A program made the translations under genes and the position numbers. Below the pieces are notes generated by a model, which ran no database searches, was not told where the DNA came from, and saw nothing but the letters and a program-made list of their open reading frames with translations. Positions 1,746 through 7,624 of a DNA stretch of 64,000 bases are shown in pieces (positions within the stretch are counted from its first letter, which is position 1; every line of letters starts with the position of its first letter). The stretch covers positions 1,248,001 through 1,312,000 of the forward strand of contig CAWHDR010000001.1 of assembly GCA_963828165.1 (NCBI GenBank), given 5' to 3'. This stretch comes from an uncultured Chloroflexia bacterium (GTDB lineage: Bacteria > Chloroflexota > Limnocylindria > Limnocylindrales > CSP1-4).

Positions 1746-2492
1746 TCACAGCCGGGATTTCAGCACGGCGACCTCGGGCATCTCCTCGAGCGGACCGAAG
1801 CCATGCTCGACCAGCCAGCGGACGTTGAGCAGGCATCGCAATGACCACCATGCGCGGATCACGTCAAGGTCCACGTCGGTGCCGTAGCCGGCGACGACGT
1901 CGGGGAGGTTCTCCTCGTGTGCGAGCGTGAGGGTGGCGAGGTCGAACAGCGGGTCGCCCTGGCACGCCTCGGACCAGTCGATGACGCCGGTGACCTCGTC
2001 ACCGTCGACGAAGACGTGGGTGATCTGCAGGTCGCCGTGGGTGAAGACGGGTGTCCACGGCCGGAGCGCAACTTCGGCGATCCGGCGGTTGCGCGTGACC
2101 ACGTCCGCCGGAAGGACGTCATTGGCGATGAGCCACTCGCACTCGCTATCAAGTTGCGATGCGAACTCGTCGAGGCTCGGACCGGGCCAGGGTGGCAGCG
2201 GCGCTTCGTGCAGCAGCCGTGCGGCCGCACCCGCCGCGGCCCACGCCGCCGGCGACGCGATGGACGGCTCCTGGAGGCGGCCGAGCGCCGTTCCCGGAAG
2301 GGCCGCGAGGGCGAGCACGGGCGGCTTTCGCCACAGGATCTCGGGTGTCGGGATCGGCGCCATCGCCATCGCCTCGACCTCGACGTCGGTGCGCGTCTGA
2401 TCGGCATCGATCTTGAGGAACAGGTCGCCGACCCGCAGCGTCGCGCGCTCGCGATGGGCGACGACGACCTCGACCTCCTCCACGTCGGCCAT
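1746..2492 (-). CDS. Aminoglycoside phosphotransferase (APH/choline kinase) family protein
   Basis: Contains LFLK, the HGDLQITHV catalytic loop, GVIDWSEA and GDPLFDLA. ATG at 2492 chosen as start. Confidence 0.85.
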   Translation of the reverse strand: MADVEEVEVVVAHRERATLRVGDLFLKIDADQTRTDVEVEAMAMAPIPTPEILWRKPPVLALAALPGTALGRLQEPSIASPAAWAAAGAAARLLHEAPLPPWPGPSLDEFASQLDSECEWLIANDVLPADVVTRNRRIAEVALRPWTPVFTHGDLQITHVFVDGDEVTGVIDWSEACQGDPLFDLATLTLAHEENLPDVVAGYGTDVDLDVIRAWWSLRCLLNVRWLVEHGFGPLEEMPEVAVLKSRL

Positions 2493-2557
2493 TATCGCGG
2501 GGAGGACCACCGACGTTACCCTGGTCGAGGCGCTGCTTCGCGGGGCGAAGGAGGATG

Positions 2558-2933
2558 TGGTGGAGATGGGGGAGAGTCGAACTCCCCGTCCAGAACCCTT
2601 CGCCGGAGACCACTACGAGCGTGTCCGATGATTTGTCGTCAACCGCCCGAACGGGCATCGGCACCCTGCCGGACGGTCCAGTCACGTGCCCCTAGATCGG
2701 GCTTGACTCCGGACTACGTGACACTTGTCCGGATCGCAGCTCCGCTGCATGACGCTTCCACTACCCGCGAAGCGGAGGTAGCTTCCACGCTCACCTTACT
2801 GCCTAAGCAGCGAGGGCGAGAGTCGACTGGCGGTTGCCAGGTACTTCGTTTTGCTGCCTGATTAACGAGGCCTGAGCAGCATCCTCGGCTCGCGCTCTCC
2901 GGTAACTGGGCCCTGTCGAAACCACGCATCCCC
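2558..2933 (-). ncRNA. ssrA: tmRNA
   Basis: 5' GGGGAUGCGUGGUUUCGAC and 3' GGGGAGUUCGACUCUCCCCCAUCUCCACCA form a tRNA-Ala-like acceptor stem with a G3-U pair and encoded CCA. Internal tag frame 2838..2803 reads GNRQSTLALAA*. Confidence 0.97.
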
Positions 2934-3022
2934 ACAGGACCGAACACCGGTTCGGTTTCGAATGGTACCACGAAGGCGCCGGCACCCCGGACGACCGAGC
3001 CATCCGCGACGAAGCCAATCGC

Positions 3023-3031
3023 TGCTATCGT
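3023..3031 (+). promoter_or_regulatory. Extended -10 promoter (TGc-TATCGT) upstream of the riboswitch
   Basis: TGnTAnnnT lies about 6 nt before the 5' end of the aptamer. Confidence 0.5.
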
Positions 3032-3035
3032 AGGC

Positions 3036-3143
3036 AGTGGCCGAACCTCCTCATCCGAGGACGGGGGACCCACACTTCGGGGCGAATCGCGCGACGCGAC
3101 GGCGGACCCACGCCGAGCCCGACAGCTCACCTCGCAGGCCAGC
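3036..3143 (+). promoter_or_regulatory. Cyclic di-AMP riboswitch (ydaO/yuaA class)
   Basis: Consensus blocks occur in order: GCCGAA-[CCUC..GAGG hairpin]-ACGGGGGACCCA...GGGGCGAAUC...[GGCG..CGCC]-GAGCCCGACAGCUCACCUCGCAGGC, closed by UGGCC/GGCCA. Recognised by eye, not scored with Infernal. Confidence 0.88.
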
Positions 3144-3161
3144 AGGGCTGCTTCGAGGTAC

Positions 3162-4412
3162 GTGGTGTTCCGGTCGCCGTCATTCAACCCGTCACCGAGC
3201 CGGCGTGCGCTCGGGCGCAATCTCGCGCTCGACCTCGTCGCGGCCACGGGCGTCGGCGTCTCGATGGCGCTCGTCACCGCCCTCTTGCCGACGATCGCGC
3301 GACGCGGTGGCCTCGAACCACTGGGCCTGTCCGCGCTGGCGGCGGCGCCGTTCGTCGCCAACCTCCTGAGCGCGTTCGCCGGACGGTTCGGGCCGCGCTC
3401 CTCGGCGCAGTTGGCGATGATCCGTGGTCTCGGCGCAGCCTCGCTCCTGCTGGTGTTCGTCGTGCCGGTCGCGCCCGTGATGATCGCCGTGGCGTTCGTC
3501 TTCTGGATGAGCCTCTCGTTCGGCGGGCCGTTCCACCTCCGCCTGTGGGGCGCCATGTACCCGGCTCGGCTGGTCGGGCGCGTGGTGGGCTTCATCGGGA
3601 TGGGCCGTGCCGCCGCCGGCGCGCTCGCCGCGTTCGGCGGAGGCGTCATCGCCGATCGGCTGGGTGGGCCGTCCGCCGTCGCGATCGCCGGAACCGTCGG
3701 GATCGCGTGTGCGCTCGCGTATGCGGGTCTGCGCGCGCGGTCCGCCGAGCGGCCGCCGTCGTATTCGGCCCGCGGATCCATTCGCGCGCTTCGTGAGCGA
3801 CCACTGCTCGGGAAGGTCGCGCTGGCCCAGGGCTTTTACGGCGGCGGCCTCATCGCGGCCGTGCCGCTGTACGCCCTCGTCCATGTCGACCGGCTCGACC
3901 TGCGGCTCTCCGACGTCGGCGTCATCGGGATCATGGCCGCCGTCGCGACCACGATCTCGTTCCCGATCTGGGGTGCGGTGGCGGACCGCCACGGCGGGCT
4001 CTGGGCGCTCCGCCTGGGCAGCAGTCTCGGAGTGATCGGACTCATCGGCTACGCCCTCGCTCCAGACGTCGCGATCCTGTGGGTCATGGCCGTCGGTTAC
4101 GGAGCGGCGAGTGCGGCGGTCGACGTCGGCATCGCCTCGATCGTCAGCGACCAGACGTCGCTGGCGTCGCGCGCCGCCGCGATGGCCGGCTGGAACGCGA
4201 TCACCGGAGCTCGCGGGATCGCGGCCGCGTTCCTCATGAGCGCCCTGCTGCAGCTCGGGGTGGTGGACGTGACATCCGGGCTGCTCCTGTGCGCGGTCGT
4301 GTCGGCGGTGGGCGTGGTGCTGTTCGCGCGCGTGAACGCCAAGGCGCCGGAGCCCGTGCCCGCGCCGGCACCCCGGTCCGTGCCCGCTGGGTCGACGGTG
4401 CCGACCGGCTGA
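3162..4412 (+). CDS. MFS transporter
   Basis: About 12 hydrophobic segments with MFS loop motifs GVIADRLG and WGAVADRHG. The start may be the GTG at 3165. Confidence 0.85.
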   Translation: MVFRSPSFNPSPSRRALGRNLALDLVAATGVGVSMALVTALLPTIARRGGLEPLGLSALAAAPFVANLLSAFAGRFGPRSSAQLAMIRGLGAASLLLVFVVPVAPVMIAVAFVFWMSLSFGGPFHLRLWGAMYPARLVGRVVGFIGMGRAAAGALAAFGGGVIADRLGGPSAVAIAGTVGIACALAYAGLRARSAERPPSYSARGSIRALRERPLLGKVALAQGFYGGGLIAAVPLYALVHVDRLDLRLSDVGVIGIMAAVATTISFPIWGAVADRHGGLWALRLGSSLGVIGLIGYALAPDVAILWVMAVGYGAASAAVDVGIASIVSDQTSLASRAAAMAGWNAITGARGIAAAFLMSALLQLGVVDVTSGLLLCAVVSAVGVVLFARVNAKAPEPVPAPAPRSVPAGSTVPTG

Positions 4413-4459
4413 TCCGGGTTCCGAGAGCCGGATCGTTCCAGCCTGCCAGGCCCGCCCGG

Positions 4460-4619
4460 ATTCATCGACAGTGAACGATTGCAGGGCGAGAAGCCTCGCG
4501 TGACGACTGGGTGACCGCTGGCGTCACGCTTGTTCACCAGTGCTGAACGTCCCGACGCGAGCATTCCCGATCTGGAGGTTCGCGAGGCTTGACCGTGTGA
4601 ACGTTCACTGTCCGTGAAT
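4460..4619. repeat. Long nested inverted-repeat element (MITE/REP-like)
   Basis: Terminal arms ATTCATCGACAGTGAACG (4460-4477) and CGTTCACTGTCCGTGAAT (4602-4619) are 16/18 complementary. Inner arms AAGCCTCGCG (4491-4500) and CGCGAGGCTT (4581-4590) are perfect. Confidence 0.7.
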
Positions 4620-4698
4620 GCGAAACCCGGCCGACGTTGCGTCTCGGGCTCAGGCAGCAGCCTCACCAGGCCCGTCGCCCCACCAGTACGATGCGGCC

Positions 4699-5268
4699 AT
4701 GCGATTGACGGCCTGGGAGGAGGAACGTCTCCTCATCTTCACAGCGGCCGAGCTGGCGCGGCGGCATCGCGATCGCGGTCTGCTCCTGAACGCCCCGGAG
4801 GTCGTCGCGATCATCTGCGATGCCATGCTGGAGACCGCCCGGGCCGGCGCGACGTACGAGGAGGTGGAGGCCGCGGGCCGCGATGCGGTCACCGCTGAAC
4901 AGGCACTCCCCGGGGTACCCGCCCTGGTCGACGAGGTCCGGCTCGAGGTCCTGCTCGACGACGGCGTCCGCCTGGTCGTCCTCATCGAGCCGCTCGGTTC
5001 GTCCGGGGACGCTGCCCCCGGGGCGATCCGGGGAGCTCCCGTACGCGACGGTGACGACGTCGGTCGTGACCGCATCCGGTTGGAGGTCCGAAACGCGTCG
5101 ACCCGCGTCGTCCGGGTGTCAAGCCACTATCCGTTCGAGCGGGTCAACCAACGGCTCGAGTTCGATCGGCGCGGTGCGGCCGGCTTCCGGCTCGACCTCC
5201 CGGCGGGCTCGACGGAGCGCTGGGAGCCCGGCGAGACGCGGACCGTGGACCTGGTGCGGCCGGGGTGA
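4699..5268 (+). CDS. Urease-like fused gamma/beta subunit
   Basis: MRLTAWEEERLLIFTAAELARR..RGLLLNAPE (gamma) is followed by VRNASTRVVRVSSHYPFERVN..L.FDR..AAGFRLDLPAGSTERWEPG (beta). ATG 4699 lies 6 nt after TACGAT. Confidence 0.9.
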   Translation: MRLTAWEEERLLIFTAAELARRHRDRGLLLNAPEVVAIICDAMLETARAGATYEEVEAAGRDAVTAEQALPGVPALVDEVRLEVLLDDGVRLVVLIEPLGSSGDAAPGAIRGAPVRDGDDVGRDRIRLEVRNASTRVVRVSSHYPFERVNQRLEFDRRGAAGFRLDLPAGSTERWEPGETRTVDLVRPG

Positions 5269-6929
5269 AGCGCCTCTCCCCCGCCGAGCGACTCGCCCGC
5301 TATGGTCCCACGAGGGGCGATCGCGTCCGCCTCGGTGACACCGACCTGTGGGTCCGCGTCGAGGACGACCGCCAGGCTCCGGGCGATGAGCCCATCTGGG
5401 GCTACGCCAAGACGCTTCGACCTCGATCCCTGCAGGGTCGCTCGAGCGAATTGGAGCTGGACGTCGTCATCGCCGGCGCGCTCGTGCTCGACCCGGTCAT
5501 CGGTGCCGTCAAGGCCGACATCGGGATCAAGGACGGGCGCATCGTCGGCGTCGGGCGAGCCGGGAACGAGGGGATGAGTCCCGGGATCGAGCTGCGCGTC
5601 GGCCCGCACACCCAGCCGATCATGGGCTACGGCCTGATCGCGACACCAGGTGCCATCGACAGCCATGTCCATCTGATCTCGCCGGAGCTGCTGCCCGCGG
5701 CGCTGTCCGGCGGCGTCACGACGCTGATCACCGCCGGATTCGAGGAGCCGCCGTGGGCCATGGCACGCACGCTCGCGGCCATCGCCGACTGGCCGCTCAA
5801 CGTTGGGCTGCAAGCGTGCGCGCGGGCGGAGCAGGACGCCTCGCTCGACGCGCTCCTGGAAGCCGGCGCGTGCGGATTTAAGATCCACGAGGACTACGGC
5901 GCCCATCCGGAGCTCATCGATCACACCCTCCGCTACGCGGACGGGCACGACGTGAGCGTCTCGCTTCACACGGACGGACTGCACGAGAGCGCCGAGCTCG
6001 AGGACACGGTCGCGGCGATCGCGGGCCGGACCGTCCACGCCTATCACGTGGAGGGCAGCGGCGGCGGTCACGTGCCCGACGTCATCGGTCTCGTCCGCGA
6101 GCCGAACGTGATCTGCTCCTCCACGACCCCCACCGTGCCGTGGGGCGTCAGCGCCGCCGCCGAGCAGCTCCCGATGATCGTCCTCAACCACGGGGCGTCG
6201 TTCGCGGTCGCCGAAGACGTCGACCTCGTCCGCGAGCGCGTGCACCCGGCCACGATGGCCGCAGAGGGGCCGTTGCACGAACTGGGCGCGATCGGGATCG
6301 TGAATTCGGACTCGCAGGGCATGGGCCGGATGATGGAAACCGTCCGCCGGACGTTCCAGCTCGCCCACGTGATGGCGTCGTGGTCCGGGACGGCGCCGGC
6401 CGCCGATCCGTACGACGCGAACGAACGCGTGCTGCGCTACCTCGCGAAGGTCACCATCGAGCCGGCGATCACGCACGGCATCGCCGGGCATGTTGGCTCG
6501 CTCCGGCCGGGCCGCCTGGCCGACATCGTCCTGTGGCAGCCGGCCTACTTCGGCGTGAAGCCGGCGGTCGTGCTGAAAGCAGGCATCGCCGCCTGGGGAC
6601 CGCTCGGCGAGGGCAACGCCACGGTCGAGGGCGCGGAACCCACCCGCTATCGGCCCGACTGGGGCGGGCTCGGCCGGTCGGCGGCGTCGCTGTCGACGAC
6701 GTTCGTGTCGTCCCGGGCGGTGGGATCGCCGGATCTGCGGCGCCATGGTCGAACGCTGATCGCGGTCAAGGGGACACGCGGCCTGACGCGCGAGTCACTG
6801 GTCAGGAACCGGGCGGTCGCCGCCATCGACGTCGATGTCCGCGACGGGACGGTGACCCTGGACGGACGGCCGCTTGCCGTCGATCCGGTCCGCGAGGTGC
6901 CGCTGAGTCGTCGCTACCTGCTGAGGTAG
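5265..6929 (+). CDS. Urease alpha-subunit-like amidohydrolase (divergent)
   Basis: RYGPTRGDRVRLGDTDL N-terminus. Metal-ligand motifs DSHVH, GFKIHEDYG, LHTDGLHES, YHVEGSGGGH and SDSQGMGR. C-terminal LSRRYLL. GTGA overlap with the upstream gene. Confidence 0.92.
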   Translation: MKRLSPAERLARYGPTRGDRVRLGDTDLWVRVEDDRQAPGDEPIWGYAKTLRPRSLQGRSSELELDVVIAGALVLDPVIGAVKADIGIKDGRIVGVGRAGNEGMSPGIELRVGPHTQPIMGYGLIATPGAIDSHVHLISPELLPAALSGGVTTLITAGFEEPPWAMARTLAAIADWPLNVGLQACARAEQDASLDALLEAGACGFKIHEDYGAHPELIDHTLRYADGHDVSVSLHTDGLHESAELEDTVAAIAGRTVHAYHVEGSGGGHVPDVIGLVREPNVICSSTTPTVPWGVSAAAEQLPMIVLNHGASFAVAEDVDLVRERVHPATMAAEGPLHELGAIGIVNSDSQGMGRMMETVRRTFQLAHVMASWSGTAPAADPYDANERVLRYLAKVTIEPAITHGIAGHVGSLRPGRLADIVLWQPAYFGVKPAVVLKAGIAAWGPLGEGNATVEGAEPTRYRPDWGGLGRSAASLSTTFVSSRAVGSPDLRRHGRTLIAVKGTRGLTRESLVRNRAVAAIDVDVRDGTVTLDGRPLAVDPVREVPLSRRYLLR

Positions 6930-6943
6930 GGCTTGGGGAGCGG

Positions 6944-7408
6944 CTAACGCCCGCGCTGGATGTCCGCGAGCTGGCGGGCGATGTCCCGCTTCGAGTCACG
7001 GTCCGCGATATCGCGTCGCTTGTCGTGGAGCTGCTTGCCGCGGGCGAGCCCAAGCTCGATCTTGGCCTTACCGCGGGTGATGTACAGGCGCAGCGGCACG
7101 ATCGTCTGACCCTTGGCCTTCGCCCGTCCCAGCAGCTCGTCGATCTGCTTTCGGTGGAGCAGCAGCTTGCGGGTTCGCTTGGGGTCGTGGTTGTACCGAT
7201 TGCCCTGCTCGAACGGCGCGATGTCCGCGCCGATGAGCCACGCCTCTCCCCGCTCGATGCGAGCGTAGGCGTTGGCGATGTTGGCCTTGCCGGCCCGGAT
7301 CGACTTGATCTCCGTGCCGGTCAGCACGAGACCGGCCTCGAATGTGTCGTCGATCGTGAATTCGTGGCGGGCTTTTCGGTTGAGAGCGACGGTCGAATCG
7401 TCGCGCAT
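6944..7408 (-). CDS. smpB: SsrA-binding protein SmpB
   Basis: NRKARHEF, EAGLVLTGTEIKSIR, RKLLLH and GKQLHDKR motifs; AGGAG SD. Confidence 0.98.
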   Translation of the reverse strand: MRDDSTVALNRKARHEFTIDDTFEAGLVLTGTEIKSIRAGKANIANAYARIERGEAWLIGADIAPFEQGNRYNHDPKRTRKLLLHRKQIDELLGRAKAKGQTIVPLRLYITRGKAKIELGLARGKQLHDKRRDIADRDSKRDIARQLADIQRGR

Positions 7409-7456
7409 GGATGGCTCCTGTCGGACGTGGCTGGAAGGATAGGTGCCGAAGGCGCA

Positions 7457-7487
7457 CGAACGCCGGTCCTATTCGGACCGGCGTTCG
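7457..7487 (-). terminator. 13-bp perfect hairpin, probable terminator of the small unit upstream of smpB
   Basis: CGAACGCCGGTCC-5 nt-GGACCGGCGTTCG; the U-tract is weak. Confidence 0.65.
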
Positions 7488-7516
7488 AGTTGCTTACCCA
7501 CCCACAGGGTGTCCGA

Positions 7517-7567
7517 CTAGACGGCCATCTCCTGCGAGGTGGTGCAGCTACGCGTACTGTCGATCAC
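7517..7567 (-). CDS. Putative 16-aa small ORF (MIDSTRSCTTSQEMAV)
   Basis: GTG is preceded by GAAAGGAGGTGAT and has its own promoter and a downstream hairpin. Too short for the ORF track. Confidence 0.55.
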   Translation of the reverse strand: MIDSTRSCTTSQEMAV

Positions 7568-7595
7568 TGCACATCACCTCCTTTCGTTCTCAAGA

Positions 7596-7624
7596 ACCGT
7601 ACCTGAACGCCGTAGCGAGCGCAA
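7596..7624 (-). promoter_or_regulatory. Sigma70-type promoter TTGCGC-N17-TACGGT
   Basis: Exact 17-nt spacer, about 10 nt upstream of the strong SD. Confidence 0.55.

Follow-up and report, generated by a model that had tools for sequence, protein, structure and literature searches.

A 64,000-nucleotide stretch of DNA from the genome of an uncultured soil bacterium of the Limnocylindria (hereafter the window; G000:C1:1248001-1312000) raises the question of whether a gene pair with all the structural domains of urease in fact encodes a urease. Urease is the textbook nickel enzyme, and the gene for its alpha subunit serves as the standard marker by which soils and waters are surveyed for ureolytic potential. 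The pair in question, ureAB-ureC, lies in a 3.31 Mb assembly of 6 contigs that is 87.7% complete, and proteins like its alpha-subunit homolog (P0002) are named 'urease subunit alpha' by both NCBI and JGI. We find that the pair belongs to a large and conserved branch of the urease family in which the catalytic machinery is kept, the pocket appears to be rebuilt, and no maturation system was found. The interpretation that we favor, with about as much doubt as confidence, is that ureAB-ureC may encode a hydrolase of N-substituted ureas (ureido compounds).

The two open reading frames run in the same direction and overlap by 4 nt.

4699..5268, plus strand: ureAB-like gene, fused urease gamma and beta subunits (Pfam), 189 amino acids counted from Met28.
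5265..6929, plus strand: ureC-like gene, urease alpha homolog P0002, 554 amino acids, GTG start.

An alternative upstream ATG at 4618 gives a ureAB reading frame of 216 amino acids (4618..5268), in which the gamma domain begins at Met28, corresponding to nucleotide 4699. In this longer chain, Pfam places Urease_gamma at residues 28-125 (E 1.5e-26) and Urease_beta at residues 149-214 (E 9.3e-22), and the gamma/beta fusion claimed in an earlier, unaided reading of the window (the original prediction) is therefore real. The fused protein scores 198 bits on the NCBIfam 'bifunctional urease subunit gamma/beta' model, under the cut-off of 243. P0002 comprises a Urease_alpha N-domain (residues 8-118) and an Amidohydro_1 domain (residues 125-441, E 5.6e-41), both above the Pfam cut-off. 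Together, the two genes encode all of the urease structural domains, namely gamma, beta, and the alpha N-domain with its amidohydrolase barrel.

Active-site motifs were compared by using a phmmer alignment to Helicobacter pylori UreB (1e9y_B, E 6.9e-137) and two MAFFT alignments. All six ligands of the dinuclear metal site are kept in P0002, namely H134, H136, K206, H235 (LHTD), H261 (YHVEG), and D349 (NSDSQGMGR), in agreement with the original prediction, which had recognized the HxH motif, the Lys of KIHED, two further His residues, and the Asp of SDSQ. The motifs are located as follows.

5664..5672, plus strand: H134-V-H136, the first two metal ligands.
5730..5753, plus strand: shortened pocket loop T156-A-G-F-E-E-P-P163, with an 11-residue gap in three alignments.
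5880..5894, plus strand: K206-I-H208-E-D210 (FKIHED), the Lys that is carbamylated in ureases, the substrate-binding His, and Asp.
6183..6197, plus strand: flap L307-N-H309-G-A311, canonically V-C-H-H-L, with Cys replaced by Asn and the second His by Gly.
6243..6245, plus strand: H327, aligned with the active-site Arg (Klebsiella aerogenes R336, Sporosarcina pasteurii R339), SRIRP becoming ERVHP.
6309..6329, plus strand: D349-S-Q-G352-M-G-R, containing the Asp ligand, with Gly in place of the pocket Ala363/366.

According to a published review (PMC7433671), the residues that line the K. aerogenes pocket are Ala167, His219, Glu220, Asp221, Gly277, Cys319, His320, Arg336, Ala363, and Met364. In S. 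pasteurii numbering, Ala170 and Ala366 hold the metal-bound urea nitrogen through their carbonyls, and the flap is locked by Asp224-His323-Arg339. Four of the ten pocket residues are changed or deleted in P0002, specifically the loop with Ala167, Cys319 (Asn), Arg336 (His), and Ala363 (Gly); His219, Asp221, His320, Met364, and the Gly-rich loop are retained. The sequence TAGFEEPP stands in for the ~19-residue GGGTGP..GT.ATT.TPG loop that bears Ala167 in K. aerogenes and Ala170 in S. pasteurii. This replacement had been proposed previously, but the shortening amounts to 11 residues rather than the suggested 10 or so. At the flap, MVCHHL is changed to VLNHGA, wherein the Cys and the second His are lost as predicted, and H309 pairs with the first of the two canonical His residues. 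This residue corresponds to the catalytic flap His, H320 of K. aerogenes, as numbered from the PDB titles of the C319 (C319A) and H320 (H320N) variants. The alignments likewise bear out the change of SQAMGR to SQGMGR, and they add a fourth pocket change that had been missed, wherein the active-site Arg is replaced by His (H327). Of the three differences originally offered, two, SQGMGR and the lost Cys, are not diagnostic because plasmid-borne ureases of Ancylobacter and Klebsiella that reside beside annotated accessory genes share both. By alignment, the catalytic core is untouched while the pocket is altered.

Conservation of these features was evaluated with two sequence sets. The first, of 188 Limnocylindria-type sequences with 69-95% identity, combines 67 taken from loci with 121 proteins, the query among them, and the second contains 121 sequences (the query, the homolog P0124, and the 119 listed homologs of P0124) that are about 60-68% identical to the query. 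Residues H134, H136, K206, H208, D210, H235, H261, H309, G310, G352, and M353 are invariant in 188 of 188 sequences of the first set. D349 is present in 187, and position 327 is occupied by His in 184, by Ile in three, and by Leu in one. The sole exception at the Asp ligand is the ureC gene of locus L039 (8001-9707), which reads VNSNSQGMGR and thus carries Asn. In the P0124 set, the metal ligands, the KIHED His and Asp, the flap residue H309, and the loop residues F159, E160, and E161 are unchanged in all 121 sequences, and the residue aligned with the Arg is His 99 times, Arg 21 times, and Ser once. The AGFEEPP motif is found in 186 of 188 and 119 of 121 sequences, respectively. Comparison of these sequences indicates that the catalytic apparatus is under purifying selection, and the pattern is that of a predicted active enzyme with a conserved new pocket.

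Profile, structure, and tree analyses all bear on where P0002 belongs. The protein scores 537.2 bits on the urease-alpha equivalog model TIGR01792 (cut-off 680) and 538.7 on NF009685 (cut-off 907), reaching neither threshold, and passes only the subfamily model NF009686 (615 versus 354). An AF2 (AlphaFold 2) model built from a 28-sequence alignment has a mean predicted local distance difference test (pLDDT) value of 86.4 and a predicted template modeling (pTM) score of 0.92. Foldseek matches this model to the urease alpha subunits of H. pylori and K. aerogenes with a template modeling (TM) score of 0.94 at 41% identity, and the structural neighbors that follow the ureases are hydantoinases and allantoinase. 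P0002 displays the pattern of dinuclear amidohydrolases with a carbamylated Lys, wherein HxH, the bridging Lys, two His residues, and Asp are arranged on a TIM barrel. The pLDDT of the model falls below 50 only at residues 265-268 and 450-459, the former being a Gly-rich SGGG stretch that adjoins ligand H261.

A search of 1.84 billion representative sequences yielded 3765 matches to P0002. Full-length homologs fall into classes with the canonical loop, with a loop shortened by 3 residues and accessory genes nearby, with a loop shortened by 4, with a loop shortened by 10 or 11, and with degenerate sequences devoid of ligands. In a tree of 34 rows, from which 8 of 42 initial sequences had been dropped as fragments or broken sequences, the homologs with the 10- or 11-residue deletion form one clade (Shimodaira-Hasegawa-like approximate likelihood-ratio test (SH-aLRT) support of 98). 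This group and the group with the 4-residue deletion, including pairs carried by Streptomycetaceae plasmids, together form a 17-row clade (SH-aLRT 98), and the canonical, 3-residue-deletion, and degenerate sequences fall on the opposite side. Six full-length degenerate homologs (P0150, P0169, P0176, P0187, P0200, and P0217) have lost HxH, the KIHED Lys and/or the SDSQ Asp, have the look of pseudo-enzymes, and form one clade (SH-aLRT 99) that adjoins the canonical ureases. Another unusual homolog is P0335, a 678-amino-acid relative of P0124 in which a precomputed Pfam list gives a Urease_beta domain fused to the alpha subunit.

In a second tree of 36 rows, the AGFEEPP clade splits into three subclades joined at a polytomy. 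Subclade (a) contains P0124, L103, L105, and L107; subclade (b) contains the Limnocylindria sequences including the query (SH-aLRT 99); and subclade (c) contains 20 rows (SH-aLRT 90). In both trees, P0002 lies apart from the characterized ureases, among which nesting would have spoken against the original prediction. By these sequence comparisons, P0002 is a member of a well-supported clade outside the canonical ureases, and this AGFEEPP clade is common in Limnocylindria and in other metagenome-assembled genomes (MAGs) from soil.

If the pair is not a conventional urease, its maturation genes might be missing as well. The original prediction had noted that neither ureD, ureE, ureF, or ureG nor a Ni or urea transporter gene is present in the window. 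The first part of this statement can be extended to the entire 87.7%-complete assembly, which gave no match to the UreD, UreF, UreG, and UreE_C profile hidden Markov models (HMMs) or, by tblastn, to the Ancylobacter UreD/E/F/G queries. No UrtA or UT urea transporter was matched in the genome either, and one NicO-family match occurs outside the window, 316 kb away. Among 81 genomes sampled from the genus, including that of the window (G000), 50 carry a UreC-like homolog (E < 1e-30), none of which exceeds the urease-alpha equivalog cut-off of 680. No UreG-like match whatsoever was found in 46 of these 50 genomes. UreG matches at E <= 0.001 occur in four of the 81, with just one above the cut-off. 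In the genomes G011 and G072, ureF, ureG, and ureD adjoin a second, canonical ureC with the full loop and SQAMGR, and their recovery by the same tblastn queries serves as a positive control. The presence of both the variant pair and a canonical cluster in these genomes suggests that the two types are not redundant. The canonical ureC-ureF-ureG-ureD clusters (L158, G011:C3:114000-128000; L159, G072:C37:14000-28000) are frame-split or carry stops, and these breaks could reflect assembly errors or decaying genes. Finally, the UreD/E/F/G queries gave zero tblastn matches in 128 related loci totaling 1.44 Mb. The earlier suggestion of an enzyme that is independent of accessory proteins or acts on a different substrate thus gains from a lineage without UreDEFG and from noncanonical placement, while the function itself is still a prediction from sequence.

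The most informative gene context comes from relatives of P0124, which, where named, derive from Actinomycetota and Verrucomicrobiae MAGs. Among 48 metagenome loci of this type, a gene of the PAD_porph family (hereafter PAD) adjoins ureC in 23. In 20 of the 23, PAD and ureC directly adjoin each other on one strand, separated by -9 to +39 bp, and the order ureAB-PAD-ureC was confirmed by Pfam in five of five fully scanned loci. The remaining PAD loci are divergent (L144) or partial (L148 and L150). Of the 25 loci without PAD, 16 have at least 1.1 kb of upstream sequence and nine have less. All 13 PAD-linked rows of the 36-row tree reside in subclade (c). The PAD proteins match their Pfam family with E values of about 1e-103, end with GGGGPHCITQQ, and score 311-321 bits on the agmatine deiminase model TIGR03380. 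G019, a genome from the genus of the window's bacterium, has a ureAB-ureC pair with 59% identity to the query and, next to it in divergent orientation, a PAD gene. Around the subclade (a) loci lie genes for a class-III aminotransferase, an aldehyde dehydrogenase, a flavin adenine dinucleotide (FAD) oxidase, and an ABC transporter, and one subclade (c) locus has an arginine deiminase gene nearby. Neither a CN_hydrolase (AguB-type) gene nor a urease accessory gene was found among the 65 neighbor proteins scanned at the sister-subclade loci. At L103, a 989-amino-acid fusion of an APH-type phosphotransferase and a class-III aminotransferase (4360-7329, minus strand) is divergent from the P0124 ureAB-ureC pair, and a two-component system lies beyond it.

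The product of agmatine deiminase is N-carbamoylputrescine, a mono-substituted urea whose carbamoyl group is normally taken off by AguB. Where the genes of a urease-fold enzyme surround a deiminase gene, that enzyme is therefore an obvious candidate for this step, and the sister-subclade linkage points, by analogy, to N-carbamoylputrescine as the substrate. Our proposal is that ureAB-ureC would encode an active dinuclear metallo-amidohydrolase with a urease fold, from a distinct clade marked by the invariant AGFEEPP loop, an x-H-G flap, and, in most members, replacement of the active-site Arg by His. Its metal centre would be assembled without UreD/E/F/G, as in other amidohydrolases with a carbamylated lysine, and its substrate would be an N-substituted urea cleaved by urease chemistry. 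In such a reaction, the carbonyl oxygen would be bound by metal 1 and the terminal NH2 by metal 2, the bridging hydroxide would attack, and the flap His would assist. The best candidate substrate may be N-carbamoylputrescine or a similar cationic ureido-amine, which would yield the amine, CO2, and NH3, and the AguB reaction would thus be performed by an unrelated fold. The 11-residue deletion in the loop would make room for the substituent, and the two new conserved Glu residues together with the loss of Arg would suit a positively charged tail. Because the pocket signature is common to the query and the PAD-linked subclades, this function may, with reserve, be transferred to the gene in the window. 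More tentatively, the AGFEEPP clade as a whole might be a self-maturing, possibly nickel-free family of ureido-amine hydrolases that replaces the nitrilase-type AguB in the pathway from agmatine to putrescine.

The surroundings of the pair in the window itself are of another kind. The genes and RNA elements nearest to it are as follows.

1746-2510, minus strand: APH-family gene.
2558-2933, minus strand: transfer-messenger RNA (tmRNA) gene, ssrA (Rfam, 119.6 bits).
3029-3154, plus strand: c-di-AMP (cyclic di-AMP; ydaO/yuaA) riboswitch, 65.4 bits (gathering score 38).
3162-4412, plus strand: MFS gene.
6944-7408, minus strand: smpB.
Downstream of smpB, minus strand: S41 protease, ftsX, ftsE, prfB, and secA genes.

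A scan of GTDB species genomes gave 476 relatives, and neighbors were counted at the best 80 of the 476 loci, all of which are from MAGs and nearly all of which are labeled Chloroflexota or Limnocylindria.

ureAB, directly upstream of ureC: 77 of 80 loci.
smpB: 73 of 80.
S41 protease: 69 of 80.
ftsX: 66 of 80.
ftsE: 65 of 80.
prfB: 58 of 80.
MFS: 54 of 80.
APH: 5 of 80.

The tmRNA gene is found just upstream in eight of eight loci scanned with Rfam. With this gene upstream and smpB downstream, ureAB-ureC is therefore a cassette located between ssrA and smpB. The gap between the tmRNA gene and smpB in the window is about 4 kb and is occupied by a riboswitch-MFS module and the ureAB-ureC cassette. 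In relatives, this interval varies in that it carries the MFS gene only, ureABC only, both, or a proline-racemase-family gene. The latter is found between ureC and smpB in four more distant scanned loci, with no evident link to the pair.

The MFS gene was considered as an importer of the substrate and was rejected, as it forms a separate module with its own c-di-AMP riboswitch. This module is present without ureABC in G010, G006, and G008 and is missing from six of eight scanned ureABC loci, and in G006 the MFS gene ends 66 bp from smpB, which leaves a clean empty site for ureABC. On NCBIfam, the gene gives only a 19-bit match to an oxalate/formate antiporter, and no subfamily can be assigned. 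The riboswitch lies directly upstream of the MFS gene, and this combination of riboswitch and MFS gene is conserved in L019, L041, G010, G006, and G008. The APH-family gene was likewise rejected as a partner on the basis of its presence in only five of the 80 loci. Thus, the query subclade yields no functional neighbor. Throughout the window, GC content is about 69%. A promoter and terminator scan of positions 2500-7600 gave no signal exceeding that of shuffled sequence, and a search of datasets for sampled words from the locus listed no RNA dataset and 20 DNA datasets, each with a share of <=0.15. Close homologs and related loci are labeled Chloroflexota or Candidatus Limnocylindrales.

Several observations weigh against N-carbamoylputrescine as the substrate of the enzyme in the window. 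Genomic coupling to agmatine deiminase is present for the sister subclade (the 23 loci and G019) and is absent for the window's genome. The PF04371 (PAD_porph) search gave no match in this genome, nor in 79 of the 81 genus genomes searched, and tblastn revealed no arginine deiminase in the window's genome, such that no internal source of N-carbamoylputrescine is seen for the query subclade. Against the AguB model (cut-off 410), a nitrilase-family protein of this genome reaches 267 bits, so that AguB cannot be taken as missing. No transporter is reliably linked to the pair, given the separate nature of the MFS module. The PAD scores are under the TIGR03380 cut-off of 381.8, and therefore the substrate of PAD is itself a prediction. 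Moreover, the support for the PAD-linked subclade is only SH-aLRT 90 within a three-way polytomy, the pocket geometry is deduced from alignment, and, apart from the Arg, every residue with a known role in urea hydrolysis is kept.

These points lead to the strongest rival explanation, wherein ureAB-ureC is a genuine urease that is activated without the known accessory proteins and that recycles urea derived from agmatinase. Such an enzyme might be activated spontaneously at low efficiency or might use a metal other than Ni. The agmatinase reaction releases urea, and the genome encodes both an agmatinase (TIGR01230, 186.8 bits, above the cut-off of 174.3) and a second arginase-family protein. 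Given this agmatinase, and with no allophanate hydrolase above its cut-off in the genome, a urease would have an obvious job, and no second UreC homolog was found in the genome. The six ligands, the urea-oxygen-binding His, the KIHED Asp, and the catalytic flap His are invariant, and with a TM score of 0.94 the fold is indistinguishable from that of ureases. There are also precedents, as some active urease reportedly forms from ureABC in Bacillus subtilis even though accessory genes are lacking, and the Helicobacter mustelae UreA2B2 protein is said to be an Fe urease made without them.

Against a urease, 11 residues are missing from the loop whose Ala167/170 carbonyl holds the urea NH2, and the Arg of the Asp-His-Arg flap triad (for both assignments, PMC7433671) is His or, in a few sequences, Ile or Leu. 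The clade stands apart from every accessory-linked urease sampled, and two genus genomes additionally keep a canonical urease cluster. Inserted in the sister-subclade operon is a deiminase that yields a substituted urea and not urea itself, and searches of the genome gave no urea transporter. On balance, we regard a true urease as less likely than not, but as a rival to be taken seriously. The substituted urea suggested in the original prediction gains from the deiminase inserted in the sister-subclade operon and loses from a genome that has an agmatinase and no match to the deiminase.

It is unlikely, but conceivable, that the enzyme acts on a different small C-N compound outside the deiminase pathway, such as an amide, a carbamate, hydroxyurea, or a biuret-like or guanidino compound, in which case the deiminase linkage of the sister subclade would not apply to it. 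The query subclade offers no informative conserved neighbor, with only ureAB found consistently between the tmRNA gene and smpB, and the flap residue that precedes the His differs between subclades (Asn versus Val). Furthermore, a related short-loop clade occurs in a Streptomycetaceae gene cluster for nonribosomal peptide synthesis (NRPS), which indicates that the branch has been recruited to other chemistry. However, the query and the PAD-linked subclades have in common AGFEEPP, the ligands, the flap H-G, and, for the most part, the change of Arg to His, and these shared features argue for the same substrate class in both. It is very improbable that the pair is a noncatalytic or decaying relic of a urease operon that has lost its accessory genes. 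In favor of a relic, no accessory genes were found, only 50 of the 81 genus genomes carry the gene, G006 shows a clean empty site, and other parts of the family contain truly degenerate urease homologs. Against it, both reading frames are intact, the active-site residues are invariant in the 188 and 121 sequences down to about 60% identity, the new loop is itself conserved, and the frameshifted copies come from long-contig assemblies in which other genes are broken too.

Judged by titles and abstracts, we found no paper on the AGFEEPP clade, on a urease-deiminase operon, or on accessory-free divergent ureases in the open full-text literature, a coverage that excludes subscription journals. P0002 is probably miscounted as a urease at present. 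If ureAB-ureC does act on substituted ureas, the reaction scope of the urease fold would widen, polyamine metabolism would gain a case of nonorthologous replacement, and nitrogen-cycle inventories based on ureC would need correction in soils rich in Limnocylindria. Should the whole clade be a family of ureido-amine hydrolases, a sizeable share of 'ureC' in soil metagenomes would not be urease. If the pair is instead a true urease, it would provide a widespread natural case of accessory-free activation.

Comparison with known systems places these features in context. The Ni ureases (K. aerogenes UreABC, S. pasteurii, and H. pylori UreAB) have the same subunit set and fold at about 41% identity, and they share with P0002 the six ligands, the KIHED His and Asp, and the catalytic flap His. 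P0002 differs from them by a loop that is 11 amino acids shorter, by Cys319 to Asn, His321 to Gly, Arg336 to His, and Ala363 to Gly changes, by scores under the equivalog cut-off, by its separate clade, and by the lack of any UreDEFG found. The H. mustelae enzyme UreA2B2 (PDB 3qga), said to need no accessory proteins, resembles the pair in its gamma/beta fusion. Its UreB2 chain matches P0002 with an E value of 2.1e-132 and 40% identity, which is no closer than the Ni ureases, and hence the analogy drawn in the original prediction finds no support in sequence.

Similarly, the plasmid ureases of Ancylobacter and Klebsiella (L099 and L097) share the fused gamma/beta subunits, SQGMGR, and a flap without Cys, which is replaced by Ser. 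These proteins differ from P0002 in that the loop is only 3 amino acids shorter, the flap HH and the Arg are kept, and their position is on the canonical side of the tree. The Ancylobacter polymorphus plasmid carries adjoining ureG, ureD, ureE, and ureF annotations together with ABC transporter genes, and the K. aerogenes plasmid, the record of which is incompletely annotated, carries adjoining ureG, ureF, and ABC transporter genes. A nitrilase-family gene also flanks the Ancylobacter urease. The likeness to AguB (nitrilase superfamily, EC 3.5.1.53) concerns the proposed reaction and the agmatine deiminase that is the operon partner in the sister subclade, a link made by gene context only, and the two differ in that AguB has an unrelated fold with a Cys-Glu-Lys triad as opposed to a dinuclear metal centre.

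The Streptomycetaceae homologs of NRPS clusters (L095, L096, and L098) belong to the same 17-row clade, have the two-gene arrangement of gamma/beta plus alpha, and have no accessory genes adjacent to the urease-like pair. They differ from P0002 in their loop, QNFGPTWGCGVT, which is 4 amino acids short, in the retention of SQAMGR and the Arg, and in the sequence FHVEGCGGGH. These loci and L102 are from plasmids of Streptomyces sp. NBC_00637, S. anulatus, and Embleya sp., where the pair lies within an NRPS-type cluster and is co-directional with it. The order of genes is an FkbM-like methyltransferase, two adenylation proteins, a condensation protein, a phosphotransferase, and a 528-amino-acid hypothetical protein, followed by ureA, urease alpha, a 2-oxoglutarate (2OG)-Fe(II) oxygenase, and a phosphotransferase. 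The L095, L096, and L098 pairs are embedded among adenylation, condensation, phosphotransferase, and 2OG-oxygenase genes.

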